From: a virus
Lineage: Duplodnaviria > Heunggongvirae > Uroviricota > Caudoviricetes
Virus record (IMG/VR): IMGVR_UViG_2609459803_000002
Coordinates: 1 to 12,160 of that record
Strand: one strand, 5' to 3'
Length of the DNA: 12,160 nucleotides
A model generated the notes under the pieces. That model was not told the origin of the DNA. It did not search any database and worked only from the letters and a program-made list of their open reading frames with translations. Shown piece by piece: positions 1 to 12,160 of this stretch. A program made the translations under genes and the position numbers. How positions within the stretch are numbered: position 1 is the stretch's first letter; the number at the start of each line of letters is the position of its first letter.

Positions 1-123
1 TGCAAATTCATTATAAACATCATCACTGACAGCCAGAGCATCATCTGGCCATGAATTTGCATTAATGTAATCATCCTTAAGTGCAGGATTCACAAAAATG
101 TTTAAAGATGGACTATAAAACAT
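1..123 (-). CDS. Tail fiber assembly protein (Tfa-like chaperone), N-terminal 41 codons only; gene runs off the window start
   Basis: ATG at 123..121 sits one nt after the tail fiber stop. Own translation MFYSPSLNIFVNPALKDDYINANSWPDDALAVSDDVYNEFA carries the WP.DA..VS..Y.EF N-terminal signature recalled for enterobacterial tail fiber assembly proteins. Absent from the ORF track because it is partial. Confidence 0.5.
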   Translation of the reverse strand, partial: MFYSPSLNIFVNPALKDDYINANSWPDDALAVSDDVYNEFA

Positions 124-124
124 A

Positions 125-763
125 TTACACCCCTATAGCGATATAACGACCTAATACAGCGTTTGCAGCAGTCGCTATGCTTGAAAAACCGCGGAACTGA
201 TTTGATGTAATTGCAGAAGCCGACAGGATTCCTGCGCCTGAAGGTGTATGCCCCACATGACTAACTATCATTCCATAACATGCTGACGGAAAGGCAAAAG
301 GAAAATCGTTAAGATATCCGGCATCTTCACCACCAGACCCACCAAATCTCGCCTGCCCCCACTGAATAATCAGTGTTCTCCGGGAACCTGAAATAATTAA
401 CGGGATCGTTACATACCCATTCAGGCCAATGACACCAGATGCAGTGCCAGCCAGAGATAATTCTCCCAAACCAAGGTTTTCGAGAGCCGTTTTCACGGTG
501 CCATCCGATTTGATATCGCCAAACGGATTCTTGCGGCTTAACAGCAGCGCACGAAGCGCGGTAAGCAGCTGGTCGTGTTGCGCCTTCTCCAGACTAGCAC
601 CGGATGCCTCCACCACGCTGCAAAGCTCCTCCTGCAACATGTCAAAGTAGTCATCATCCAGATCGGTAGCAGGCGTGCCAGTCTGGGGGTTACCACGGGT
701 AAAACCGTTTTTACCCGCGCCGAACTTATCCTTCTGCGCGGTTTTCGTGTCTATACGATGCAT
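125..763 (-). CDS. Phage tail fiber protein, short (212 aa)
   Basis: ORF-track protein ([22 protein letters not shown]...) with Gly/Ser-rich C-terminal half, GGAG ribosome-binding site 6 nt upstream of the ATG, and a tightly coupled tfa-like gene immediately downstream. Family assignment is by context and recall, not by search. Confidence 0.55.
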
Positions 764-1574
764 GGATTACTCCGGATACCGAACCGTTGAGCATCTCGAT
801 AACTTCCCGCCGCTTGTCGTAGCACGGCCCCTCAATGTTGTACCCGGCGGTGGTGATGGCCCACATCAGTGGCTGACGTCGCGCGCCCATCCCGGTAAGC
901 ATCGTGGTATAAAGCGCATCGGTGGCGTGCTCGTGATATTCATCCACCACGGCACAGTGGGGTGATGAACCATCACCGGGGTTACCGATCAGCGGTTCAA
1001 ACCGCGCGCCATCCTCCGGACGGTTCATGTTTGAGGCGTTAACCTCAATCCCGAACGCTTCCGTCAGCATGGGTGTGCGTTTACACATCAGTCGCGCCGG
1101 GCGAAAGACTTCCCACGCCTGTTTCTCTGTCGTGGCACCGGAATACACTTCCGCGCCAAACTCGTTATCACAGGCAAAACAATACAGGGCAACACCGGCA
1201 GAGATTGCCGATTTGCCGTTCTTACGGGGGATTTCGGTATACACCTCCCTGAAGCGGCGCAGCCGGGAGCCTTTATTGACCCAGCCAAACGCACAGCAGA
1301 TCACAAAGAGCTGCCACGGTTCCAGCGTGATGGGCATCCTCTTGAATGCCCACTCCCCCTTGGTGTGTGGCAACAGCTGAATAAATTTCGCGGCCCGTTC
1401 AGCCAGGTCCTTGTCGAAGCGGTAACGAAACGACTTACTTTTTTCCGCCATCAGGTCATCAAGATGGCGCTGGCAGGCCTGAATCACAAACTGGCAGGCC
1501 ACAATCTTTCCGCGCACGACATCACGGGCATACTGATTGGCAGCATTTACGTTGGGGTAAGATTTCCGGCTCAT
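726..1574 (-). pseudogene. Large terminase subunit, N-terminal ATPase domain only (3'-truncated remnant of a roughly 550-aa HK97-type protein)
   Basis: Walker A-like IPRKNGKS and Walker B-like CAVVDEYHE motifs are present. The ORF stops at 282 aa, shortly after the ITTAG motif, with no nuclease domain in any frame; the next gene is the tail fiber. Start overlaps the TerS stop, as is typical. Confidence 0.75.
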
Positions 1575-2065
1575 GATTCGATGATTTTCAGAAACGGGTT
1601 AGTGGCTTTCTTCTGCCCCGCCAGGCCAATCAGACGCTGGCGGCTGCTGGGGTCGAGTCCGAGCATTGCCCCCGTGCTGCTCATCTCGGACTCCTGTTCT
1701 TTCTTGGCGGTCAGCTCCGGATTTTTGACCATGCCACCCATTGCACCGGTGATGGTGTTGCCCTGTCTGGCAATATTTTTCACGGCACGCCGCCAGAACT
1801 CGTAGGCCACGCACCACCGCTCAAGCACCGCGAGGTCAGTCACGCACAGCAGGCCCTGACCGCAGAGTTCTTTGGTTGTCAGTTGCCACATGATCGTGGC
1901 GAGAGGGAGATCTTCTTCAGCGAACCACTCCGGTGGCTCAACACCTTTGATGGGCGTAAAAACAGGTTCATCTTTATTCAGGGCTCGCTTGCCGGGGTTT
2001 CCGGCCAGCGCCTTGCGCGCCGTTGGCTTGGGGCGACGCCCGGACCCCCCCGCCGTTCCAGCCAT
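1571..2065 (-). CDS. Small terminase subunit, P27 family
   Basis: N-terminus [30 protein letters not shown] matches the recalled P27-family signature. Start chosen at ATG 2065..2063 (AGGAG 8 nt upstream) rather than the GTG at 2074 used by the ORF track. Confidence 0.8.
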
Positions 2066-2104
2066 ATGCGGCACTCCTGGTTAAATTTCATTTTTCGCGG
2101 GTAT

Positions 2105-2164
2105 AAAAAAACGATGGGGCGGGCAGTCCGGAAGACGTCAGGTCACAGGGATGTGACCCGCCCC
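2105..2164 (-). other. GC-rich nested inverted repeat between HNH and TerS: candidate cos/packaging site or intrinsic terminator
   Basis: GGGGCGGG (2116-2123) pairs with CCCGCCCC (2157-2164) and encloses the hairpin GTCACA-ggga-TGTGAC (2142-2157). A run of 7 A (2105-2111) gives a U-tract on the minus strand after the structure. Confidence 0.3.
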
Positions 2165-2190
2165 TCCCCTCAGACAGTTGAGAGTTATTA

Positions 2191-2541
2191 TCACTTTAAC
2201 CGTTCACGGACCGTCTTCGCCTTATGACACGGCCAACACAGACTCTGCAGATTACAGTCGGCATCAGTGCCGCCATGCGCTTTAGGGATGATGTGGTCAA
2301 CGGTTTTCGCCTCACGCACCACACCGGCACGCAGACATAACTGACATAAACCTTTGTCACGCTTCAGCACACGCGCGCGGATAGCGTCCCACTTCGAACC
2401 ATAACCGCGCTGATGACGGGACTGACCTGGCTTGTATTGCTTCCAGCCTTCGCTTTTGTGGCTTTCGCAGTAGCCTGACGGGTCTGTGGTTGTAGAGCGG
2501 CAGCCGCGAACACGGCAGGCTTTTGGGGTTCGTGGTGGCAT
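2191..2541 (-). CDS. HNH endonuclease (phage packaging-associated)
   Basis: Cys/His pattern CQLC...VDHIIP...GG...NLQSLCWPCH typical of HNH; GGAG ribosome-binding site 7 nt upstream of ATG 2541; located directly upstream of TerS as in HK97-like phages. Confidence 0.85.
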   Translation of the reverse strand: MPPRTPKACRVRGCRSTTTDPSGYCESHKSEGWKQYKPGQSRHQRGYGSKWDAIRARVLKRDKGLCQLCLRAGVVREAKTVDHIIPKAHGGTDADCNLQSLCWPCHKAKTVRERLK

Positions 2542-2559
2542 TGGTAAGCTCCAATAAAA

Positions 2560-2585
2560 AAGCCACCATCGATTGCTAGTGGCTT
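2560..2585 (-). terminator. Terminator-like hairpin downstream of the orphan gene
   Basis: AAGCCAC (2560-2566) pairs with GTGGCTT (2579-2585) around a 12-nt loop; on the minus strand the stem is followed by a U-run. The stem is short, so strength is uncertain. Confidence 0.3.
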
Positions 2586-2611
2586 AGCATCTACTAATGT
2601 GAAGAGTAGGT

Positions 2612-3370
2612 TTATTTTTTCTTCTTATTTAACTTATCTAAATTGACGGGATCTTTCCCTGTGGCAGCTAAACACCAAAAAGAATAACTCTTTTGCATGA
2701 CATAGGTTCTAATTCTCTCTAATGTTTCATTATATTTTTTCTCAACAACCTGTATCGCATGTTCAAATAAATTAATCATATCAACATGCTCGTCCTCGAC
2801 ACCAATCATGCTCAGTTGTTTTCTATCTGTCACTGCTTGATAAAATGTTTTCCCATTTTTCCTTATTAGTAACAATGAAGTTTCTGCTGACTCATAGTCT
2901 TGGTTGCCGCTATGTGCTGCAAAATTATGCCTGTAGTTAATAATACAGTCATGCAACCCAAAATATTCAGAATCAAGCCAATCACGCTCCATCTTTAACT
3001 TTCTCCCTTTAGCTTCAGAGAAAGCTTTACCATAAAACGTTAGGCTTGCCACAAATAACGCTCTAATTTCACTTGATAAATCTAGATCAAGTATATTCCC
3101 GTATAACTTGCCATCTGTCCTTAATTCGTTTCTCCCTGCCAGTTCATTAGCTATTTGGTACCACTCTTTAGCACTTTTTAAGTCCCTATGAATTAGTGAC
3201 AGTGAAGATGCTCTATCGGCAATACGCCCACTCAATTTTATGCGATCTACAATTTCATTATTGAATGTATAAACCGCTTTAAATTCCCCCGTTTCGGAAT
3301 CAATATAATATTCAACATCTAACCCTTCATATGATTCACACCCGGGACCTTCTAATTTTTTTCTTTTCAT
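2612..3370 (-). CDS. Hypothetical cytoplasmic protein (252 aa), AT-rich cargo gene with an Rx5H motif (possible HEPN-like abortive-infection or toxin protein)
   Basis: Long clean ORF in a visibly AT-richer stretch. Start taken at ATG 3370..3368 (M9 of the ORF-track protein, whose first codon is TTG). Motif YRHNFAAH lies within an otherwise unassignable sequence; no signal peptide or membrane segment is evident. Confidence 0.6.
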   Translation of the reverse strand: MKRKKLEGPGCESYEGLDVEYYIDSETGEFKAVYTFNNEIVDRIKLSGRIADRASSLSLIHRDLKSAKEWYQIANELAGRNELRTDGKLYGNILDLDLSSEIRALFVASLTFYGKAFSEAKGRKLKMERDWLDSEYFGLHDCIINYRHNFAAHSGNQDYESAETSLLLIRKNGKTFYQAVTDRKQLSMIGVEDEHVDMINLFEHAIQVVEKKYNETLERIRTYVMQKSYSFWCLAATGKDPVNLDKLNKKKK

Positions 3371-3451
3371 ATAGAATATCCATATACGTTTCAATTCTCA
3401 GTCAGCATAGTAGAAAAAAAAGATGTCCAGATCCATACATCGAAAGCAATT

Positions 3452-3916
3452 TTAGTTTTCACACTGACTAGAGATATAGTCCTGCAATGCTCTTATCTGT
3501 TTATAACTGATTTCAATTCTCTCTCTGAGGGTGAAATAATCCCGTTGAGCGGTGTCAGTAAGTCGGGGGGCGGTAGCATCATCCAGGCTGGTGGTAATGG
3601 TCGTTGATTGCACTCTCGGGCAACTAGCGGCGAGGAACAGCCGCTTAGTGCCAACAGCAACATCACGCTGAAGCTGTTCAATAGTTGCTTTAGCATTTGC
3701 AAGTTCTCCGGTGTATTTCGCATCGAGCGCAGAAACATCACGCTGGCGCTGCTGCATCTCAGTAATGGTGGCGTTCGCCTGGCTGAGTTTTTCCTTCGCT
3801 TTATCGCGCTGTTCTTTGTAGGCGATGGCGTTATCACGATAATGATTAACAGCCCATGATAGGCAGACGATGGTGCAGATAACCAGAGAGGACAGAATCG
3901 CAGTTACTCTACTCAT
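3452..3916 (-). CDS. Rz: Rz inner-membrane spanin
   Basis: From the internal start [31 protein letters not shown] the protein closely matches recalled lambda Rz (N-terminal membrane segment, coiled-coil body). ATG at 3916..3914 overlaps the endolysin stop. Confidence 0.85.
3493..3696 (-). CDS. Rz1: Rz1 outer-membrane lipoprotein spanin, embedded in the +1 frame of Rz
   Basis: Internal start gives [22 protein letters not shown]... with lipobox LSGC, then the proline-rich [27 protein letters not shown], closely matching recalled lambda Rz1. Confidence 0.75.
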
Positions 3917-4391
3917 ATAGCTGAATTTCTCTGACCGTTCCGCCCGATTCTTTGAATTTTTCAATCAGGCTGTCAACCTTATGTTCGAACTGACCATAAC
4001 CAGCGCCCGGCAATGACGCCCAGATATTGCTGCAACGATCAATAGCCTGACGGATATCGCCGCGATCAATCATCGGTAAAGCACCACGCTCTTTAATCTG
4101 CTGCAATGCCACAGCATCCTGGCTTTTTGGAGAGAAGTCTTTCAGCCCAAGCTGCTTACGGTAAGCATCCCACCAGCGTGAAAGAAGCTGATAACGTCCT
4201 GCGGCTGTTGATTTAAGTTTCGGGTTTAGCGTGACAAGTTTGCGAGGGTGATCGGAGTAATCAGTGAACAGTTCACCTCCGACAATAACGTCATAACCGT
4301 GGTTACGTGTCGGTTGTCGCCCGTTATCCGTTCCTTCTGACCATGCCACCATATCGAGGAAAGCTTTACGCTGGGAATTTAGTACCTGCAT
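3909..4391 (-). CDS. R: Endolysin, lambda R-type lytic transglycosylase
   Basis: [61 protein letters not shown]... is near-identical over most of its length to recalled lambda R. Confidence 0.9.
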
Positions 4392-4394
4392 AAA

Positions 4395-4721
4395 TTACTC
4401 CTTAGAGCCACCAAACTTATTACCGATTACTCTCATTGCAGCCCCACGAATAGCATCGACCCCGATCAGCCCAACGCCGCCACCAATGGCAACAGAAAGA
4501 GATTTAGGCCATCCGACATACTCAAGAGCGGATGCAAAAGTCAGCGTCAGAGCACCACAGAGCAAAATCTCGAGCGTTTTTCGTTTCCAGCCACCACCAC
4601 CGCCAAAATAGGCAATGCGCAAGCCAGCCATAACGATCGACATAATCACTGCGCCCAGCGGTGTGTCTCCACGCCACCAGCTCTGGACCAACTCCAGCCA
4701 GGTATTTGGGTTATGAGGCAT
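4395..4721 (-). CDS. Holin, lambda S-like (three-membrane-segment class I)
   Basis: Sits immediately upstream of the endolysin. Hydrophobic segments and motifs (MAGLRIAYFGGGG; GVDAIRGAAMRVIGNKFGG) line up with lambda S features (MAYLRGRYNGG; GTDSIGSLIKRFAAKKAG). Exact start not resolved. Confidence 0.7.
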   Translation of the reverse strand: MPHNPNTWLELVQSWWRGDTPLGAVIMSIVMAGLRIAYFGGGGGWKRKTLEILLCGALTLTFASALEYVGWPKSLSVAIGGGVGLIGVDAIRGAAMRVIGNKFGGSKE

Positions 4722-4963
4722 TTGTAGTTATCTCTCACCTCGCCGATACAGGAGGTGCAAATTGAGGGAGTACCACGAACCGCAAACCAGAAGCGGAAAC
4801 GTAAAAGAAGCCGAGCCAATGGATAAGTGCTAGATAGACCAAGCCCAACGAATACCAAGGCCCAGAAATGACAAAACCCGCTCGACGGCAGGTTTAAGCT
4901 GTGTGGCGAAGTAACCACTCTTAACAGATTACACGATAAAATGCGGACCGCGTGAGGAAAACT

Positions 4964-5056
4964 ATGGTTTTTTTGAAGCGAATGAGTAAAATCAACGCCA
5001 CTTTGCACATAAGTTATCCACACTGTACGTTTGCAAAATCTCATTGCTCTCTTTGA
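4964..5056 (+). CDS. Small ORF (30 aa, MVFLKRMSKINATLHISYPHCTFAKSHCSL) upstream of the peptidase gene; candidate leader peptide or small protein
   Basis: GAGGA ribosome-binding site 5 nt upstream of ATG 4964; below the ORF-track size cut-off. No family signature. Confidence 0.2.
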   Translation: MVFLKRMSKINATLHISYPHCTFAKSHCSL

Positions 5057-5175
5057 GTTTTGTAAATGCGCTAATTTTTGGACTTTTTTTGCCGATAGAA
5101 TCTAACCACTTGTGTGGTAAGTTCTGAATGAATGTTACCTCTTGGTTTGAAAATTCTTAACATAAGGACATCTGA

Positions 5176-6171
5176 ATGTTTGAGCAGCGTAAAGCCCTGT
5201 ATGCGCAACTGGAACAAGCACGCAATTCAAAAGTATTATGCTATGTAACAGGTGATAGACCAAACCAAGAAGCTCAAATCAGCGCTGATGTATTCGATCT
5301 GTTCGTCAATCATCTTGATGTGATAGGTGATGTTCAAAAAATTAGCCTCGTGCTCTATACGCGAGGCGGCGACACTTTAACAGCATGGAGCCTTGTAAAC
5401 CTGCTTCGTCAGTTTTGTAAAGAACTCGAAATCATAATCCCATCAAAATGCCATAGTTCTGGGACGATAATGTGCCTTGGCGCGAACAACTTGGTTATGA
5501 CCAAGCAGGCAACCTTAGGGCCAATCGATCCAAGTGTGAATACACCACTTAACCCTTCGGCCATAATCAATGGGCAGCCACTTCAACTTCCAGTCAGTGT
5601 TGAAGAAATCAATGGCTATCTTGAAGTAGTTAAGCATGATTTGAGTATCAAAGATGATGCCTCACTTGCACAGATCCTCCTTGCATTAAGTGAAAAGGTT
5701 CATCCCTTGGTACTTGGAAAAGTCTATCGAGCTAAAGCGCAGATTCAAATGCTCGCAAGAAAACTACTGTCTCACCAACTCACTGATAGTGAAAGCATTG
5801 AGAAAATTGTAAGTTTCCTTTGTAGTGATTCTGGTAGCCATGACTACACTATAAATAGGATTGAAGCGGTAAACGATTTAGGTCTTACGGTGGAAAAACC
5901 AGATGAGCACCTTTACGGTCTGATCAAAGAAATTTATGAAGATTTCAAAACTGAGATGCATCTGGGTGAACCTTTTGACCCAAATGCTATCTTAGGAACA
6001 GTTAACCAGGCATCGTACGTATCTGTCAGAAGCATTTTAGAGGCTCCAGACACGTTTTCATATCAATTCCGCACTGAGGGGATGTTACAGCGTTTTCAAG
6101 TTCCAGGCGTCCCAGGTCAGTTCGGCATAAATCATAACCTTATCTCAGAGGGGTGGGCTCGACATGGATAA
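5176..6171 (+). CDS. ClpP/crotonase-fold serine peptidase (SppA / S49 / SDH-proteinase-like), cargo gene
   Basis: AAGGA ribosome-binding site 7 nt upstream of ATG 5176. Segment LVLYTRGGDTLTAWSLVNLL ... IIIPSKCHSSGTIMCLGANNLVMTKQATLGPIDP matches the GG ... (A/S)SxGT ... TLG.I core of ClpP/SppA-fold peptidases. Opposite strand to and AT-richer than the flanking phage genes. Confidence 0.7.
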   Translation: MFEQRKALYAQLEQARNSKVLCYVTGDRPNQEAQISADVFDLFVNHLDVIGDVQKISLVLYTRGGDTLTAWSLVNLLRQFCKELEIIIPSKCHSSGTIMCLGANNLVMTKQATLGPIDPSVNTPLNPSAIINGQPLQLPVSVEEINGYLEVVKHDLSIKDDASLAQILLALSEKVHPLVLGKVYRAKAQIQMLARKLLSHQLTDSESIEKIVSFLCSDSGSHDYTINRIEAVNDLGLTVEKPDEHLYGLIKEIYEDFKTEMHLGEPFDPNAILGTVNQASYVSVRSILEAPDTFSYQFRTEGMLQRFQVPGVPGQFGINHNLISEGWARHG

Positions 6172-6343
6172 CAAATCATCTACAGGTAACTTTGTAGTCT
6201 ATACTAACAGGCATACAACTACAGCTGCGCCTAAGCCAGCAAGCATTCCATCCACTGCTCAAAAAACAAGCAACAATGGCGTCAATGGCTACAGTAACTT
6301 TTTAAGTTGCACCACAGGTTCAGTCATAAAAAACAGTTTCTAA
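6164..6343 (+). CDS. Small S/T/N-rich ORF (59 aa), translationally coupled to the peptidase gene
   Basis: ATG 6164 overlaps the peptidase stop in an ATGGATAA arrangement, with GGTGGG upstream. Own translation MDNKSSTGNFVVYTNRHTTTAAPKPASIPSTAQKTSNNGVNGYSNFLSCTTGSVIKNSF; stop at 6341-6343 lies directly before the terminator hairpin. Could be spurious given its low complexity. Confidence 0.3.
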   Translation: MDNKSSTGNFVVYTNRHTTTAAPKPASIPSTAQKTSNNGVNGYSNFLSCTTGSVIKNSF

Positions 6344-6344
6344 A

Positions 6345-6371
6345 AACAACGGCTCTCTAAGAGCCGTTGTT
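6345..6371. terminator. Bidirectional intrinsic terminator hairpin between the convergent Q and peptidase operons
   Basis: Perfect stem ACAACGGCTC (6346-6355) / GAGCCGTTGT (6361-6370), extendable by one A-T pair, with loop TCTAA. Followed by a U-run on the minus strand and a weaker U-rich tract on the plus strand. Confidence 0.5.
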
Positions 6372-6375
6372 GTAT

Positions 6376-6738
6376 CTATTCACATTCTAAACGTATATCG
6401 AGCATACTAAGGCAACCATCGATAAATCCCTCAGCCATCTGTATCTCAATGCGTATTAGTTTCTCATCCTTTTTACTAGCCTTGGCGAGCTTTCTTTTAG
6501 AGATACCGTATAGGTAATGGGCAACAAGAAGCGAATGTTCGTCCGGCCTTTTTTGCTTTAGACGAGCAAGACAACCTTCAATAATTAATGCATCACTATC
6601 TGAACAAGCCTGACGTGTTTTACTTGTATAGGGAAGAAGCCCTTTAAACCCAGCAGCTATAGGCGAATAATCTACTCCAGAACTATCACTCGCCGCCCAT
6701 GCTCCCCAACGCTCCAGAACCATCTGAATATCACGCAT
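6376..6738 (-). CDS. Late-gene antiterminator Q (phage 82 / QuuD-like family)
   Basis: N-terminus MRDIQMVLERWGAWAA and C-terminus GFIDGCLSMLDIRLE match the recalled QuuD-type signature. Start taken at ATG 6738 (GGAG 7 nt upstream) rather than the TTG at 6753. Position between the nin-like genes and the lysis cassette fits. Confidence 0.8.
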   Translation of the reverse strand: MRDIQMVLERWGAWAASDSSGVDYSPIAAGFKGLLPYTSKTRQACSDSDALIIEGCLARLKQKRPDEHSLLVAHYLYGISKRKLAKASKKDEKLIRIEIQMAEGFIDGCLSMLDIRLECE

Positions 6739-6755
6739 CAACTTTCTCCACAAAA

Positions 6756-7751
6756 TCAGGCCAGCACACCAATCGCCAGCGCACGATCGATAAAACGAAA
6801 TATCAGCTCCAGCTGGGAGCCATACTTCTCTTCAAATGCCACGGTATCCGCATGCAGCTCGTCGTGATGCTTTCTGCACAAAGGCAACACAAAAAGGTCA
6901 TGCGCTTTTGTACCCATTCCACCCTGACCGTGGCCTATCAGGTGGTGGGGATCATCAGCGGGCTTTCCACAACATGCACACGGCTGCGTCTTAACCCAGC
7001 GCGTGTACTTTTCATTAACCCAGCGGCGACGTTTTGGGCGTAACATAAAAGACTCCGGCGACTCCGGCTCCACTTTCAGCGCCAGCACCTTTTTCGCTTT
7101 ATCCTGGATGATGCTGGTGGCAGGAACCGAAGGAACAAGATCACTTTCCCGGGTGACAGACGGCACAACAGGCTTCGGTAATCTCAGTGCCTTACGGGCT
7201 GCACTTTCCGGTAAGGCATCCGCCAGGTCATTACGAACCAGCCACCAGCACAGTTCCGGCATTGTCACAACGTGACTGTCATCAAAACCGAGATCCCGAC
7301 GCACGACAGACAACACCCAGCTGGCACAGTTATCCGTTGCCATTGATTCCAGCCGTTCCGTGAACTGATCGCGCAGCTGGTTATCGCAGTGCCAGCACAG
7401 ACGGATTGCGCCCGGAGCGTGTCGCATTGTGGTCATGTTCTCGCTGTGCCAGTCGGAATGAGGCCACTGGCAGCCTTTTTCACGAAGTAACCAGCTTTCA
7501 AGACATTCCACGCCACCAGCACGACGGATCACCGCCTCATTGCGGAACACAGCCCGAACGGCAGGATCATCCGCCAGTGGTTGTAATGCCGCCGGAACGG
7601 CACCACTGGAAAAAGATGAATAATGTTCCGGCTCAGGCTCCAGCAGGACACGCCCCTGCATAAACAGGGGCATCAGCTCTGAACCGGGTCTGAACAATAC
7701 GATCCCCATACGCGGGGCAATTTCAGGGGTCAGTAGCGCTCTCACGGTCAC
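6756..7751 (-). CDS. DUF968/YdfU-like prophage protein with a C-terminal HNH-like Cys/His cluster
   Basis: C-terminal CACCGKPADDPHHLIGHGQGGMGTKAHDLFVLPLCRKHHDELH; family name is from recall and unverified. GTG start abuts the KilA-N stop; exact start uncertain. Confidence 0.6.
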   Translation of the reverse strand: MTVRALLTPEIAPRMGIVLFRPGSELMPLFMQGRVLLEPEPEHYSSFSSGAVPAALQPLADDPAVRAVFRNEAVIRRAGGVECLESWLLREKGCQWPHSDWHSENMTTMRHAPGAIRLCWHCDNQLRDQFTERLESMATDNCASWVLSVVRRDLGFDDSHVVTMPELCWWLVRNDLADALPESAARKALRLPKPVVPSVTRESDLVPSVPATSIIQDKAKKVLALKVEPESPESFMLRPKRRRWVNEKYTRWVKTQPCACCGKPADDPHHLIGHGQGGMGTKAHDLFVLPLCRKHHDELHADTVAFEEKYGSQLELIFRFIDRALAIGVLA

Positions 7752-7752
7752 C

Positions 7753-8556
7753 TCAATGAACGGTATCGAGCAGCTTTAACAGCTCAGGGAATCGGGATTC
7801 GAAGAAATGCGGCTGCGTCTCACGCGGATTTGCAGGACTGGTGATGTTCTTGCCGAACATGCAGCCTTTCGCCGTCAGCGACCAGAATTTTTTAATGTTG
7901 TTAATTGCGGTACGGCTGTATCGTTCGCGTTGTTCAACGATCCCCAGCTTCGCCATCTGGTGATATGCCTGATTAGCCGTCAGGCGGATACCATACTGCT
8001 TCAGCAGTGCACTCAGCGCCAGCGTCGGGCGGCTTGAGCCATCAGGCGCGTCAGCAGGAGCATCAATGGCATAGCGCGGTGCCAGATTCGGTAAGCCAAC
8101 AGCCTCCTGGAGTTTCTGACAGGCACCAAGCACAGATGAGTTAGACAGGTTTAACTCCCGACGCATAAAGTCCAGCAGAATCACACCAGCCTGCATCTTG
8201 TCAGCAGCCTGCCCGGATAATTTTTCCGGTGCGCTGGTTACCATATCGAAAGTACGGATCACCTTCAGATGGAATGACGGGCTGATCCACATTGCATAGG
8301 CATACACCAGTTCTTTGCAGACATACGTCCCCTGGTTATTTCCGCCACGAATAACGTTAACTGGCTCTATATTGACATTGACCGAGTTGCAAATCTGCAA
8401 CTCGCTTATTAAACGTTCAGTTTGCTCATTGCGGAGCCAGAATGCAGGCTTATGCTTATCCAGAGAACCGGCAGCCCTGTGCAGATCGTTCAGGCTGTAA
8501 CGACCATAAGCATCACGACGAACTTCAATACCATCAATGACCATCAGATTATTCAT
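7753..8556 (-). CDS. KilA-N domain protein (antirepressor-like)
   Basis: N-terminal MNNLMVIDGIEVRRDAYGRYSLNDLHRAAG...KHKPAFWLRNEQTERLISEL resembles the KilA-N DNA-binding domain. Start at ATG 8556 with GAGGAG 9 nt upstream (the ORF track starts at an upstream GTG). Confidence 0.7.
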   Translation of the reverse strand: MNNLMVIDGIEVRRDAYGRYSLNDLHRAAGSLDKHKPAFWLRNEQTERLISELQICNSVNVNIEPVNVIRGGNNQGTYVCKELVYAYAMWISPSFHLKVIRTFDMVTSAPEKLSGQAADKMQAGVILLDFMRRELNLSNSSVLGACQKLQEAVGLPNLAPRYAIDAPADAPDGSSRPTLALSALLKQYGIRLTANQAYHQMAKLGIVEQRERYSRTAINNIKKFWSLTAKGCMFGKNITSPANPRETQPHFFESRFPELLKLLDTVH

Positions 8557-8575
8557 ACTTCGTTTCTCCTCTTGA

Positions 8576-8875
8576 TCAGGCGGCTGCACCCGCCGTTTTC
8601 TCGTACTTACTGATAGTGATCTCGACCTTCCCTTCCGGGATAACCGGTCCCCACTCCACCAGCATTCTTTTCACCTGACTGTCGTCTTCCCACACACCCG
8701 CGTGGGTCAGGGCGTCAAACAGCGCCTTGTTATAGTTGTCCAGATCGCGGATCCGGTTACAGGAAGCGCAATCAGTTGCGAGCGACGGTAGTGTGTTGTT
8801 AAACTGTTCATGCGTTAGTTTCTCCACAGTCACGACACGCCACGGCGCCCGGAGCTGCACACTCGCGGGCGTCAT
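8576..8875 (-). CDS. rusA: RusA-like Holliday junction resolvase
   Basis: RIRDLDNYNKALFDALTHAGVWEDDSQV matches the RusA catalytic-aspartate region (RRDLDN...FDAL...DD). Start taken at the first in-frame ATG (8875); this gives a shorter N-terminus than recalled RusA and overlaps the upstream gene by 68 nt. Confidence 0.6.
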   Translation of the reverse strand: MTPASVQLRAPWRVVTVEKLTHEQFNNTLPSLATDCASCNRIRDLDNYNKALFDALTHAGVWEDDSQVKRMLVEWGPVIPEGKVEITISKYEKTAGAAA

Positions 8876-9404
8876 TACTTTCTGAAATGCAAAAGATTTT
8901 GTAGACCAGTGCTGCATGCTCCTGCAGCTTCGAAATTGAGAGATACAGCTCGTCGTTAATTGCTGTCTTCTCATGCGGTTCCACCACACCGTCTTCGATT
9001 GCCGAACGAATCTGTCTGGAATAACTGCCAATCTGTTCAATGACTTCCAGCAGGCGCTGGTTAATATCGGCGTTGTCCACATCCTCGACGTCAGGAAGAG
9101 ACACAAAGACGCCATTTGCAGACTGCGCCACAGCGTCAGCAATGAAGTGAGTTCCACCAGCACGTTGCAAAATCATTGCCCATCCCAGCGGGAAAATCTG
9201 ATCGCCATCGGCACGAAGGCGGTTAAATAATGCGTTTTCTGTTACATCCAGCCAGTCAGCTGCTTCAGCGTAACCACCCGGCAACGCTGCGATAGTTTTT
9301 CTGACAGCTTTCACGTACCACTCAGGCTGTTTTTCTACTTTCCAGTGATGCTTACCCACGGTTAGCCTCATCGTTCTGTGGTTTCTGTTAATCGATTTAT
9401 CCAT
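8808..9404 (-). CDS. CII-like regulatory protein (phage 186 CII / e14 YmfL type)
   Basis: Central segment YAEAADWLDVTENALFNRLRADGDQIFPLGWAMILQRAGG parallels the helix-turn-helix region recalled for phage 186 CII. Lies directly after cro. Start is ambiguous (ATGs at 9416, 9404, 9371); 9404 overlaps the cro stop as ATGGATAA. Confidence 0.5.
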   Translation of the reverse strand: MDKSINRNHRTMRLTVGKHHWKVEKQPEWYVKAVRKTIAALPGGYAEAADWLDVTENALFNRLRADGDQIFPLGWAMILQRAGGTHFIADAVAQSANGVFVSLPDVEDVDNADINQRLLEVIEQIGSYSRQIRSAIEDGVVEPHEKTAINDELYLSISKLQEHAALVYKIFCISESNDARECAAPGAVACRDCGETNA

Positions 9405-9597
9405 TAGATTTTTCATAAAGCTCAGGTTTAAATGGCAACCGTCCGCAAGTTCTATATGCAGCTTCTGCTGCACGTCCTTTTGGAATTAACTGGCCCGGAC
9501 GGTTTCGCCACTGATAAACGGCTTCAGTTGTTATGCCGAAAAAAGCAGCAACTTTCTCAATACTGCCGAAGTAGCTTTCGATATCGTCAGTTGTCAT
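9397..9597 (-). CDS. Cro-like small helix-turn-helix regulator
   Basis: 66 aa, divergent from the repressor across a 97-bp operator region; GGAGG ribosome-binding site; sequence VAAFFGITTEAVYQWRN is consistent with a helix-turn-helix. Confidence 0.6.
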   Translation of the reverse strand: MTTDDIESYFGSIEKVAAFFGITTEAVYQWRNRPGQLIPKGRAAEAAYRTCGRLPFKPELYEKSNG

Positions 9598-9694
9598 ACG
9601 CCCTCCAAACTAAGTTTTATTAGATGCTAATTACAAATCTATCTTTGGTCAATAAAAACTAAGATTACTTAGCAATTCAAGAAATGGTGCTCCT
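9598..9694. promoter_or_regulatory. Divergent promoter/operator region of the immunity switch
   Basis: Minus-strand promoter candidate TTGACC (9652..9647) -17 nt- TAGCAT (9629..9624) for cro. Operator-like palindromes CTAAG-ATTA-CTTAG (9659-9672) and CTAAG-TTTT-ATTAG (9610-9623) flank it. Confidence 0.5.
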
Positions 9695-10321
9695 ATGGAA
9701 ACGGTTGGTCAGCGTATAAAAGCTCTGAGAAGAGTTACCGGAACGTCCCAGAAAGAATTGGGTAAATTTTGTGGAGTAAGCGACGTTGCTGTGGGGTACT
9801 GGGAGAAAGACATCAATACCCCTGGTGGGGAGGCACTTTCGAAATTAGCGAAGTTCTTCAATACGTCAATAGATTACATTCTTTATGGTGCTGAGTTTGA
9901 AGGCAAACTCGTCACAAACATGCGCAGAGTTCCTGTAATATCGTGGGTTCAGGCTGGGCAGTTTACTGAGTGCAGGGCAGCAGAAGTGTTTAGTGAAGTG
10001 GACAAGTGGGTAGATACATCATTAAAGATTGGTGATAACTCATTTGCATTAGAGGTTAAAGGTGACTCCATGACTAACCCTAATGGCCTCCCAACAATAC
10101 CAGAAGGCGCAACAGTGATTGTAGATCCAGATGCAGAACCTCGTCATGGAAAAATAGTCATCGCTCGACTTGATGGAACAAACGAAGCTACAGTAAAAAA
10201 ATTAGTCATCGATGGCCCTCAAAAGTTTTTAGTGCCATTAAATCCTCGGTATCCCAACATCCCTATCAATGGTAATTGCCTTATCATTGGTGTAGTCAAA
10301 GGAGTTCAATACGAACTCTAA
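9695..10321 (+). CDS. cI-like prophage repressor (N-terminal helix-turn-helix plus C-terminal LexA-like S24 autopeptidase domain)
   Basis: N-terminal QKELGKFCGVSDVAVGYWE helix-turn-helix; Ala-Gly cleavage site in VQAGQF; catalytic Ser in KGDSM and Lys in TVKKL. Confidence 0.9.
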   Translation: METVGQRIKALRRVTGTSQKELGKFCGVSDVAVGYWEKDINTPGGEALSKLAKFFNTSIDYILYGAEFEGKLVTNMRRVPVISWVQAGQFTECRAAEVFSEVDKWVDTSLKIGDNSFALEVKGDSMTNPNGLPTIPEGATVIVDPDAEPRHGKIVIARLDGTNEATVKKLVIDGPQKFLVPLNPRYPNIPINGNCLIIGVVKGVQYEL

Positions 10322-10343
10322 GACCTCTCTTCTCTAACTAAGG

Positions 10344-10376
10344 CACCGAACTAAGAAAAGTTTGGTGTTTTCTCTT
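10344..10376 (+). terminator. Intrinsic terminator downstream of the repressor gene
   Basis: CACCGAACT (10344-10352) pairs with AGTTTGGTG (10359-10367), 9 bp including one G-U, loop AAGAAA, followed by TTTTCTCTT. Confidence 0.5.
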
Positions 10377-10403
10377 GCCATAATAACTAAGTTAAGTTAG
10401 ATT
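10375..10403 (+). promoter_or_regulatory. Sigma70-like promoter candidate with overlapping operator-like palindrome
   Basis: TTGCCA (10375-10380) -17 nt- TAGATT (10398-10403). CTAAG-TTAA-GTTAG (10386-10399) sits in the spacer and resembles the operator motif next to cro. Confidence 0.3.
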
Positions 10404-10527
10404 TTATATCAAAGATAACGAACAGGCAGGACGCCCACGAAGTAGCCGCCTGGGGAATATGAAGTCCAGGATGATTCGTTGAGTCATGTTGTGCCACCAG
10501 GCACTCATGTTAAAGCAGGTGTATGAA

Positions 10528-10803
10528 ATGAAAGTCCAGATTTTAAACAATAACTGTGAAGTCGTTTGGTCATACGACATAGCCGCCCCTGTAGATCAGA
10601 GCGGCGATAGCTGGACCAATGGGAAACATCAGATTATGGCTGGAGTTGTGTTCTCTTTACGCCGTGCTTTGGAACAGGCTGAAGTATTTCCATCAGACCC
10701 TGAATGGAAATGGCCTTTTTCTATTTGTCCAAATTCGGAGAGCACATTTCAGAAAATTGGTCAGAAAGTCGCACTCGAAGAGCATCAGCCAACTGTTTCC
10801 TGA
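10528..10803 (+). CDS. Hypothetical protein (91 aa), first gene outward from the repressor's far side
   Basis: Start at ATG 10528 with AGGTG 8 nt upstream (the ORF track starts at 10486). Not arginine-rich, so not an obvious N-like antiterminator. 3' end overlaps the convergent minus-strand ORF. Confidence 0.4.
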   Translation: MKVQILNNNCEVVWSYDIAAPVDQSGDSWTNGKHQIMAGVVFSLRRALEQAEVFPSDPEWKWPFSICPNSESTFQKIGQKVALEEHQPTVS

Positions 10804-10966
10804 TTTTTTCAGGTAACTCGTCGGCATCGCAGAAACAACAACGCTCGATCATGTTGAAAGCCGATTCGTAGAACTGTTTCTGCTGAGTGTCGCTGAGACA
10901 GGAAAAGAGCGACGTTACGATGATTTTATTAATTGCATTATCAAGTTCTTTTTCATCAAAAGTCAT
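10721..10966 (-). CDS. Hypothetical small protein (81 aa, Cys-containing CCFCDADE segment)
   Basis: AAGGA ribosome-binding site 8 nt upstream of ATG 10966; plausible charged, helical composition; convergent with and overlapping the 3' end of the 10528-10803 ORF by 83 nt. Confidence 0.5.
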   Translation of the reverse strand: MTFDEKELDNAINKIIVTSLFSCLSDTQQKQFYESAFNMIERCCFCDADELPEKIRKQLADALRVRLSDQFSEMCSPNLDK

Positions 10967-11220
10967 TTGATTTTCCTTTTATGTATACGGGCTTAAAAGG
11001 ATACCACCGAGCCTGAAGTGGTGAAAAGACAGGCACATAACAGCTAAGTATTTTCAACCAGAGAGAATCCTTAGCGTTGTGGTGAATGCGGCTCAGCGCA
11101 CGCGGGTTAAGGTTGAGGCTGACAGTCGACCTTCTGTAGATACCCACCCGCCTGGTGTGCAACCTTCGCCAGGCACCGGGAGGCACCCGGCACCACAACT
11201 TTATGCTGTGTGTAGTCCTG

Positions 11221-11267
11221 GCGGTACCAGTTTGTACCCTTGCTTCCGGCTGGTACCGCTCTTTTTA
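11221..11267 (+). terminator. Terminator-like hairpin inside the GC-rich noncoding island
   Basis: GCGGTACCAG (11221-11230) pairs with CTGGTACCGC (11250-11259) around a 19-nt loop, followed by TCTTTTT. Confidence 0.35.
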
Positions 11268-11403
11268 CAAAACAGAGAAGAGCATCACCGGACGACGGGC
11301 TCATAAACCAATCCATCCGGGCGGCTGCCACCGCAGGTGTTCTTCTCTGTTTTGTGGAGAAACTAATCGGCCTTGCAGGGTCGATATGATGAGGAGCAGC
11401 AAA

Positions 11404-11766
11404 ATGGCTAGCGAACGCAGTACTGATGTGCAGGCATTTATCGGGGAGCTGGACGGCGGCGTATTTGAAACCAAAATCGGCGCAGTTCTCAGTGAAGTCG
11501 CTTCCGGTGTGATGAACACGAAAACCAAAGGTAAGGTCTCACTCAACCTGGAAATCGAACCATTTGATGAGAACCGTGTGAAAATCAAACACAAACTCTC
11601 ATATGTTCGCCCGACTAACCGCGGGAAAATTTCCGAAGAAGACACCACCGAAACGCCGATGTATGTCAATCGCGGTGGTCGCCTGACTATTCTGCAGGAA
11701 GACCAGGGACAGTTACTGACTCTTGCCGGTGAACCTGACGGAAAACTCCGCGCAGCAGGTCATTAA
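11404..11766 (+). CDS. Conserved prophage protein of unknown function (120 aa; possibly YfdP-like)
   Basis: Start at ATG 11404 with GAGGAG 7 nt upstream; the ORF-track extension upstream of this is GC-rich junk-like sequence. YfdP resemblance rests on recalled size and neighbour only. Confidence 0.6.
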   Translation: MASERSTDVQAFIGELDGGVFETKIGAVLSEVASGVMNTKTKGKVSLNLEIEPFDENRVKIKHKLSYVRPTNRGKISEEDTTETPMYVNRGGRLTILQEDQGQLLTLAGEPDGKLRAAGH

Positions 11767-11831
11767 TATCGTTCTTAATTAACTGATTATTTATCTCATC
11801 ACTGAATATCTTTATATAGTGAGGACTTATT

Positions 11832-12160
11832 ATGTCTCAGAACTTAGACGCAACCGCAATTAATCAAATCCATGCCCTTATTTCTGCTCAGAGTGTTAAT
11901 GAAATTATCAGTAAGATTGGTGCCGATGCTGTGGCATTGCCTGAGAATTTCCGCATTCATGATCTGGAAAAATTTAATTTAAATCGCTTCCGTTTCCGTG
12001 GTGCGCTTTCCACTGCCAGCATCGATGACTTTACCCGTTATTCTAAAGATCTTGCAGATGAAGGCACCCGCTGCTTTATCGATGCTGATAATATGCGTGC
12101 CGTCAGTGTGCTTAACCTGGGTACTATTGATGAACCAGGTCACGCAGATAACACCGCCAC
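11832..12160 (+). CDS. Conserved prophage protein of unknown function, N-terminal part (possibly YfdQ/DUF2303-like); runs off the window end
   Basis: ATG 11832 with GAGGA 6 nt upstream. Own translation [110 protein letters not shown] has no stop within the window. Not in the ORF track because it is partial. Confidence 0.6.

Follow-up and report, generated by a model that had tools for sequence, protein, structure and literature searches.

An STnc100-family small-RNA unit and a conserved yfdP-leader hairpin in the early-left leader of a lambdoid prophage

What resides in a GC-rich stretch of prophage DNA that lies between genes and encodes no recognizable protein? We addressed this question for a 12,160-nt viral sequence (Caudoviricetes; IMG/VR record IMGVR_UViG_2609459803_000002, positions 1 to 12,160; hereafter, the window), in which an earlier note, made from the letters alone, had singled out an island at 10990-11400 and proposed that it could be a small regulatory RNA, an attenuator of the downstream gene, a recombination site, or a decayed gene. 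We find that the island is non-coding, that it forms the untranslated leader in front of an early operon of the prophage, and that two conserved RNA modules reside in it. The first, Module A, is structurally homologous to the STnc100/PasD family of prophage RNAs, and the second, Module B, is a long hairpin that precedes yfdP, the first conserved gene of the operon. Matches to the island region are present in 2864 of 5426 complete E. coli genomes, with at least 80% coverage in 1358.

The contrast in composition between the island and its flanks is real but moderate: calculated over 200-nt segments, GC content is 0.56-0.575 at 11000-11299 and 0.525 up to 11399, against 0.385-0.455 on the left and 0.375-0.48 on the right. 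The terminator-like hairpin that had been noted has arms of 100% complementarity (GCGGTACCAG at 11221-11230 and CTGGTACCGC at 11250-11259) followed by TCTTTTT, and the 12-bp inverted repeat, AAAACAGAGAAG (11269-11280) with CTTCTCTGTTTT (11342-11353), has no mismatch and can be lengthened to arms of 25 nt (11267-11291 and 11331-11355) with 84% complementarity. The predicted fold of 11040-11270 has an energy of -92.7 kcal/mol (z = -3.78) and that of 11262-11410 reaches -62.6 kcal/mol (z = -6.12), and in both cases none of 200 shuffled sequences folded as well. The absence of a convincing ORF (open reading frame) also holds beyond the window, no frame remaining open across the relatives. The view that had to be revised is that of a single island: these are two separate modules, and the 12-bp repeat, although genuine, belongs to the second of them, an independently conserved RNA in the yfdP leader.

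The identity of Module A emerged from comparison with known RNA families. When Rfam was scanned by E-value, positions 11046-11268 of the plus strand aligned with STnc100 (RF02076) over the complete model (positions 1-206 of 206) at 44.8 bits and E = 3e-8, short of the family's cut-off of 47; at the gathering thresholds, Rfam returned nothing in the window. A 22-mer of this family, CACCGGGAGGCACCCGGCACCA, occurs exactly at 11174-11195; it is near-invariant across the family and is found in at least 120 viral contigs, which reduce to 108 unique contexts and 28 clusters below 85% identity. All loci with the 22-mer share a common plan, in which a closing helix, P1, with a UGGUGAAU junction is followed by P2, a variable insert, P4, and the CCGGG-AGGCA-CCCGG hairpin (P5), stacked beside the 3' strand of P1. 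The window conforms to this plan, with P1 and its UGGUGAAU junction, P2, P4, and P5 adjoining the P1 3' strand (Table 1), and scores 87.6 bits against R1, a covariance model that we built from 27 family representatives.

Compensatory changes support the helices of both modules. For Module A, among 74 distinct matches, 91.1% of the alignment cells were paired compared to 78.4% in shuffles, 16 of 25 base pairs were changed on both sides, and the covariation score was 0.353 compared to 0.127 for shuffles and 0.05-0.10 for slid controls, all these values somewhat favouring the structure given that the alignment was fitted to the model; P1, P2, P4 and P5 are supported. In distant relatives the P5 stem becomes GGUGG/CCACC while the AGGCA loop is kept. 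The core also contains a pseudoknot with the P4 loop, for which 23 different helix sequences occur among the 27 representatives, always at the same offset, and whose summed score in a permutation test was 169.5 compared to 117.5 +/- 5.6, a value reached by none of 5000 permutations.

Module A thus shares with STnc100/PasD the full-length model alignment, the UGGUGAAU junction, the 22-mer with P5, a 3' intrinsic terminator and the location in a prophage. Compared with STnc100 as represented by EcOnc27/sRNA103 in O157, however, P2 differs in sequence and register, and there is an additional helix, P3 (GCGGGU/ACCCGC). The genomic setting is different as well: the usual copies reside in the late region, between a Q, stx or esterase gene and the lysis genes, whereas the copy in the window is in an early-left leader, between a repressor and yfdP, has no promoter abutting P1, and is preceded by a further hairpin, P0. 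Published data attest to the expression of the relatives. In an EDL933 lysogen, 10 of 11 STnc100 copies had at least 300 transcriptome reads and one copy was positive on northern blots, with ribosome coverage values (RCV) varying widely, from 0.04 to 3.2. PasD is Hfq-dependent, and both EcOnc27 and PasD associate with Hfq; the connection between PasD and STnc100 is drawn in a 2026 preprint, and the Pas preprint shows the late-region context.

A closer counterpart by position is sRNA-17 of E. coli K1 RS218, a 193-nt small RNA (sRNA) characterized by 5' and 3' rapid amplification of cDNA ends (RACE) and northern blot (Front Microbiol 2020, PMC7719688). Its gene belongs to an mEp460-like prophage, its level increases in stationary phase, and phosphorylated ArcA binds the DNA upstream of it; the published paper states that sRNA-17 has no Rfam homologue (PMC7719688). 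Its locus is the same as that of Module A, between a cI-type repressor and yfdP in an mEp460/SfV-like prophage. According to the authors' full-length primers, derived from RACE, sRNA-17 starts at CGUUGUGGUGAAU/CGTTGTGGTGAATGCGCAGG and ends within the U-tract of its terminator (GGCGGTACCAG...CTGGTACCGC; GGCGGUACCAG) (PMC7719688), so that the equivalent in the window is 11075-11265, that is, 191 nt. We made the comparison with L159, the identical locus from another strain. The two alleles have the same ends but not the same sequence over the whole 193 nt: they are identical at AGCGTTGTGGTGAATGCG and CACCACAAC; over the interval that begins with the terminator and includes Module B and yfdP they are 98-99% identical, with 4 differences; and about 110 nt of core interior and linker cannot be aligned. 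Specifically, sRNA-17 agrees with the window in the 5' motif CGUUGUGGUGAAUGCG, the P1 3' strand CACCACAAC and the terminator, except for one loop base, but lacks the STnc100 22-mer, and the loop of its P5, GCCGG-AGAUCAGCA-CCGGU, is larger. Similarly, mEp460-type phages match the window only at 11219-11404.

Judged by sequence, Module A is a core-swapped allele of sRNA-17, with an STnc100-like core set in the sRNA-17 frame. Model R1 nevertheless detects sRNA-17 over its full length (23.1 bits, E = 4e-5, compared with 88 bits for the window), and therefore sRNA-17 belongs to the same structural family. This joins into one family an sRNA reported in 2020 without an Rfam homologue and the widespread prophage sRNAs of STnc100/PasD, and the allele in the window demonstrates that cores are swapped between alleles while the ends stay. 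Of the four proposals in the earlier note, that of a small regulatory RNA accordingly fits the part of the island up to the terminator, which is both homologous to STnc100 and a positional allele of sRNA-17. Disruption of sRNA-17 was reported to raise yfdP by log2 6.6 (about 95-fold), and yfdR as well, a rise confounded by the inserted resistance cassette, the primers showing that the terminator was left in place (PMC7719688).

Table 1. Coordinates of the features discussed, in window positions
Feature	Position	Strand	Remarks
Q-like antiterminator gene	6376-6753	-	Gene map
cI-type repressor, LexA family	9695-10321	+	Gene map
Operator copies CTAAG-N5-CTTAG	10349-10400		Repeats common to the cI/cro intergenic region
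pL-like promoter TTGCCA-17-TAGATT	10375-10403	+	Promoter scan; just 3' of the cI-type repressor gene
Module L	10416-10486	+	CGAACAGGCAGGACGCCCACGAAGUAGCCGCC, covarying hairpin CCUGG...CCAGG, GGAUGAUUCG; directly after the pL-like promoter
Inverted repeat ACCAC-N10-GTGGT, then GGCACATAACAG	11003-11043		Between the leftward ORF 10721-10966 and the RNA unit
Extended P0 hairpin	11036-11081	+	z = -4.03; inner P0 11043-11075; inverted repeat
Module A (small-RNA unit)	~11075-11265	+	Closing helix, multi-helix pseudoknotted core, linker, terminator
Module A core, STnc100 family	11076-11199	+	Rfam, model R1, covariation
P1 (9-bp closing helix), GUUGUGGUG with CACCACAAC	11076-84 with 11191-99	+	
P2 hairpin	11088-11103	+	
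Pseudoknot, AAGGUUG with P4 loop CAACCUU	11109-15 with 11160-66	+	
P4	11150-57 with 11167-74	+	
P5, CCGGG-AGGCA-CCCGG	11176-90	+	Within the 22-mer 11174-95
Single-stranded linker	11200-11220	+	Unpaired in the minimum-energy fold
Intrinsic terminator	11221-11266	+	10-bp GC-rich stem (13 bp in the fold), then UCUUUUU
Module B, yfdP-leader hairpin	11262-11360 (with small GC hairpin, to 11385)	+	Fold, 16-sequence alignment
Conserved GGAGAAACUAA, then GC hairpin (11366-11385), then Shine-Dalgarno GAGGAG (11391-96)	11356-11403	+	
yfdP	11404-11766	+	First conserved early-left operon gene; annotation of a 99.8%-identical genome; PHROG 204

The terminator marks the 3' end of the small RNA. A consensus terminator scan missed the hairpin only for its 19-nt loop, the limit of the scan being 8, and a terminator follows the core in all 21 instances of the window class and in 70 of the 86 other family instances, with different stem sequences in ST64B, phiES15 and L084. 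The linker between P1 and the terminator contains UGCUGUGUGUAGUC (11204-17), which is conserved within the class (ST64B, phiES15, L139, L140, L145, L153, L155) and is a candidate seed or Hfq-contact region. On the 5' side, the outer pairs of extended P0 are formed by CAUAAC (11036-41) and GUUGUG (11076-81); because GUUGUG also provides the 5' strand of P1, extended P0 and P1 are mutually exclusive. The same arrangement is found in ST64B with a different P0 sequence (z = -3.83), and competition between P0 and P1 may constitute a co-transcriptional folding switch. Still further upstream, the ACCAC-N10-GTGGT/GGCACATAACAG motif, which recurs in Cronobacter phiES15 and in the Enterobacterales prophages L130, L134, L144, L145 and L149, might belong to the RNA or serve as the operator of a regulator. 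Inspection by eye of both strands of 10967-11075 revealed no convincing sigma-70 promoter.

Module B starts within the U-tract of that terminator, with a stem of about 25 contiguous predicted pairs that encloses a three-way junction; the junction bears a short GC hairpin and a conserved GACGGGCUCAUAACCCAAUCC, from which the window departs at one base (...CAUAAACCAAUCC). Among yfdP-homologue upstream regions from 31 genomic loci, most have, after the terminator, the same succession of a long stem that begins in the U-tract, the GACGGGCUCAUAACCCAAUCC junction with its GC hairpin, the string GGAGAAACUAAC, a small GC hairpin and a ribosome-binding site, which in the window is GAGGAG ahead of the yfdP start codon at 11404. 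In an alignment of 16 sequences from several Enterobacterales genera, compensatory changes occur in 9 of 36 predicted pairs (one pair, for example, is CG in 9 sequences, GC in 6 and UA in 1), and Providencia has a simpler hairpin that lacks the three-way junction. Rfam has no credible match at Module B. An RNase III site calls for some 20 bp or more of near-perfect double-stranded RNA, and the 25 contiguous predicted pairs, preserved by compensatory changes, provide it. In the leader of lambda N, the order is nutL, an RNase III hairpin and the N ribosome-binding site, and the window resembles this layout in having a promoter-proximal signal and then a long hairpin just 5' of the first early-left gene; it differs in lacking an N gene and conserved boxA/boxB, and in the conserved three-way junction of Module B. 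The boxA-like CGCUCUUUUUACAA (11257-70) is the tail of the terminator and varies in relatives, so that we recognize no lambda-type nut site here, although no formal boxA/boxB search was made.

These assignments gain meaning from the genomic context. The window is a lambdoid prophage, and the island lies in its early-left (pL-side) leader, as follows from the layout of the prophage genes and from the rightward pL-like promoter after the repressor. The minus strand carries cro, a cII-like gene, a regulator, a DUF968/HNH gene, the Q-like antiterminator, holin, endolysin and Rz. Following pL are two small convergent ORFs, the island, yfdP and yfdQ, and in a genome with 99.8% identity to the window across the 551 bp queried (10900-11450), yfdR and the integrase come next. 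The gene map, annotation and PHROG comparison reveal no N-like ORF between pL and yfdP. ST64B, cdtI and phiES15 have the same layout, namely, a repressor, a long non-coding gap, and then yfdP or kil.

A third conserved element, Module L, is located near the start of this leader. This strongly conserved segment of about 70 nt is preceded at different loci by pL promoters of different sequence, suggestive of several immunity types, and its hairpin has three base pairs with compensatory changes. Module L scores 89.9 bits against model R2, is present as one copy per locus, and occurs in 45 phage records from Escherichia, Salmonella, Shigella, Klebsiella, Yersinia, Pantoea, Citrobacter and Pectobacterium; 37 of the 40 records listed have no feature under the match, and 3 have a hypothetical-protein call there. 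Rfam contains no match to Module L, and R2 found no second copy on the pR side. In L135, the promoter ahead of Module L is nearly identical to pL of phage HK022, and hence Module L sits where putL sits in HK022. As conserved RNA elements, Modules B and L are candidates for inclusion in RNA family databases.

How might these parts work together? We somewhat favour a working model in which the terminator both yields the small RNA and gates yfdP-int, with Module B processing the read-through. RNA polymerase arriving from upstream, where transcription would start, would mostly stop at the terminator, thereby releasing a stable small RNA of ~190 nt that probably binds Hfq via the terminator tail and may act in trans via the linker; the same stop would keep yfdP-int silent in the lysogen. 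Polymerases that read through would transcribe Module B (11262-11385), whose long helix would take up the terminator U-tract and which would most likely be an RNase III-type processing and translation-control element. Cleavage at Module B would separate the small RNA from the yfdP mRNA, as at the RNase III hairpin of the lambda N leader. For the existence and the ends of the small RNA, the model relies on the experiments with the sRNA-17 allele, and for the gate, on the universal presence of the terminator and the confounded phenotype of the sRNA-17 mutant. In this form, the attenuator envisaged in the earlier note is plausible, with a terminator in 21 of 21 class instances and yfdP elevated upon sRNA-17 disruption as the supporting part and the cassette as the reservation. 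A comparable arrangement is that of the lambda 6S/pR'-tR' RNA and StxS, in which, as in this family, a small RNA arises from termination within a phage operon opened by antitermination; however, the copy in the window is not promoter-proximal, and lambda 6S has no match to the family model.

Several observations weigh against this model. Cleavage of Module B by RNase III is only an analogy, the Rfam score of Module A remains under the curated gathering threshold, and the rise of yfdP is confounded by the cassette. A sigma-70 promoter abuts the unit in none of the 21 instances of the window class, compared with 17 of 86 (20%) late-region relatives, in which a strong promoter (for example, TTGACA-18-TAAATT) has its -10 element ending 4-6 nt, mostly 5, before P1. 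Searching the window for a trans target of the linker yielded none, the best duplex being no better than those of shuffled linkers. The near-invariant loop, the pseudoknot and the conserved junctions are unusual for a plain base-pairing sRNA and point to a binding partner; a simple seed-and-terminator sRNA explains neither this conserved core fold nor the position of the family in early-left and late leaders, that is, in operons with Q- or N-type antitermination.

The same core fold and leader positions are the reason why we retain, as a minority view, the possibility that the leader acts in cis by RNA-based processive antitermination, in the manner of HK022 put, with the small RNA as a by-product; Module L, the Module A core, or both would then bind RNA polymerase or a host factor and allow read-through into yfdP-int. 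The resemblance to put consists of a structured RNA in the early leader of an N-less lambdoid phage and, for Module L, of the length of ~70 nt, the location directly after pL and an energy fold that, as for putL, is not thermodynamically exceptional. Such an activity would suit an early-left leader that contains terminators, at least two before yfdP in ST64B, and no N, as well as a family whose members lie in early-left and late leaders of operons that, in lambdoid phages, are controlled by Q- or N-type antitermination, and whose core, with its near-invariant AGGCA loop, covarying stem (GGUGG/CCACC in distant relatives) and pseudoknot, has the features of a ligand- or protein-binding fold. Yet neither module has sequence or model similarity to put: the HK022 pL and pR loci gave no hit with R1, R2 or Rfam, and Module L shows no sequence similarity to put and lacks the second, pR-side copy. 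Module A, for its part, is ~670 nt from pL, has five helices and a pseudoknot rather than the two stems of ~70 nt that define putL and putR, and occurs as a single copy. In addition, late-region family copies reside in operons already served by Q, the relatives accumulate as discrete terminated RNAs, which implies that their own terminator is not efficiently suppressed in lysogens, and cdtI-type phages have the same operon but no Module L and no STnc100-type core. On a broader and likewise tentative reading, Module L, the pseudoknotted core with its P0/P1 switch, and Module B would together represent an unrecognised form of RNA-based elongation control in N-less lambdoid prophages, in which the STnc100/PasD/sRNA-17 core binds RNA polymerase or a conserved host factor and is not merely an sRNA scaffold. 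The fold and the leader positions offer a concrete starting point for inquiring into the function of these abundant RNAs, and bear on how N-less lambdoid phages open their early-left operon.

Other explanations appear less probable. Module A could be a conformational switch, an attenuator or riboswitch-like sensor that controls termination or processing, in which GUUGUG (11076-81) pairs either upstream with CAUAAC in extended P0 or downstream with CACAAC in P1, as set by a factor or by the kinetics of transcription. The two pairings are mutually exclusive and both are kept in ST64B despite its different P0 sequences, and Module B has the appearance of the same frame without its core, fixed as a long hairpin; but the alternating strands lie outside the terminator stem, P1 and the terminator are kept apart by a conserved, unpaired linker of 21 nt, there is no ligand or metabolic gene context, and the alternative pairing derives from inspection and energy folding only, so we consider such a switch improbable. 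Much less can be said for a decayed protein gene, an origin that we reject. It is true that the NCBI pipeline PGAP calls a 'frameshifted hypothetical protein' pseudogene at the equivalent of 11079-11389 and that ORFs of the island match PHROG 3651 and 33599, which were built from annotated phage ORFs. However, the best frame is open in only 13 of 27 sequences of the core and 12 of 16 of Module B, relatives differ in length by amounts that are not divisible by three, changes within helices compensate one another, the 22-mer is devoid of synonymous-type variation, and the two PHROG families, one of them on the strand opposite yfdP, have no assigned function. A DNA-level role of the inverted repeats in recombination or module exchange is scarcely more credible, and we found no evidence of the recombination site that had been suggested: mosaic breakpoints do coincide with the edges of helices, the shared segment is confined to 11219-11404 in many phages, and alleles have exchanged the interior of the core, but homologous recombination between related phages produces breakpoints at conserved flanks anyway, the covariation, including strand-specific G-U pairs, reflects selection on RNA pairing, and no recombinase gene adjoins the island.

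The PGAP call and the matches to PHROG 33599 and 3651 (11079-11389; 11107-11331 on the minus strand) overlie conserved RNA helices; PHROG 33599 and 3651 are probably spurious-ORF families, and several hypothetical-protein calls in this region are probably translations of RNA structure.

Several further observations concern the RNA family. STnc100-like units can form tandem arrays of 3 or 4, spaced by ~250-410 nt (L014 2327-3349, L030 1727-2340, L022 374-987), most other viral contigs having one or two copies. The late leader of the prophage in the window contains no STnc100-type unit; within it, the interval between the Q-like gene and holin contains, on the opposite strand, a 331-aa ORF (5176-6171, plus strand; PHROG 11747). 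There is a resemblance between GUGCUCUU..GUUGUGUGGAGAA, the 3' strand of Module B, and GUGCUCUUUCCGUUGUGGUGAAU, the P0-3'/P1-5' strand of units in other loci, and Module B may, by inspection only, be a core-less copy of the frame of Module A. Lambda 6S RNA was considered as a family relative and rejected, the only hit being a weak one to P1 alone, 3' of tR'. Just 3' of lambda tR' (L158 ~987-1140, lambda 44786-44939) is GCACAACAGGTAAGAGCATTG, which this weak hit follows, and the same motif starts the RNA unit in L064 (exact over 19 nt) and, with 1-2 differences, in L140 and L084.

Other features of the leaders are peripheral to the two modules. The small convergent ORFs, 10486-10803 (plus strand) and 10721-10966 (minus strand), overlap by 83 nt, and each is a full-length match to a PHROG family without assigned function (3195 and 3311); because both are missing in ST64B and cdtI, they look like morons inserted within the leader. 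ARAGORN detected no tRNA or tmRNA genes in the window, and Rfam found no isrK there. On the pR side of ST64B and cdtI, isrK (RF01394) scores above the gathering threshold (L002 21-97 and L003 26-102, both on the minus strand), in each case inside annotated coding sequences. Finally, the ST64B leader (L002 ~2236-2385) contains a long-range helix, GUCUUCGGGAGGGG ... CCCCGCCCGAAGAU, around ~120 nt, seen by eye only and also present in L133, L150 and L151, which would be another structured domain of early-left leaders.

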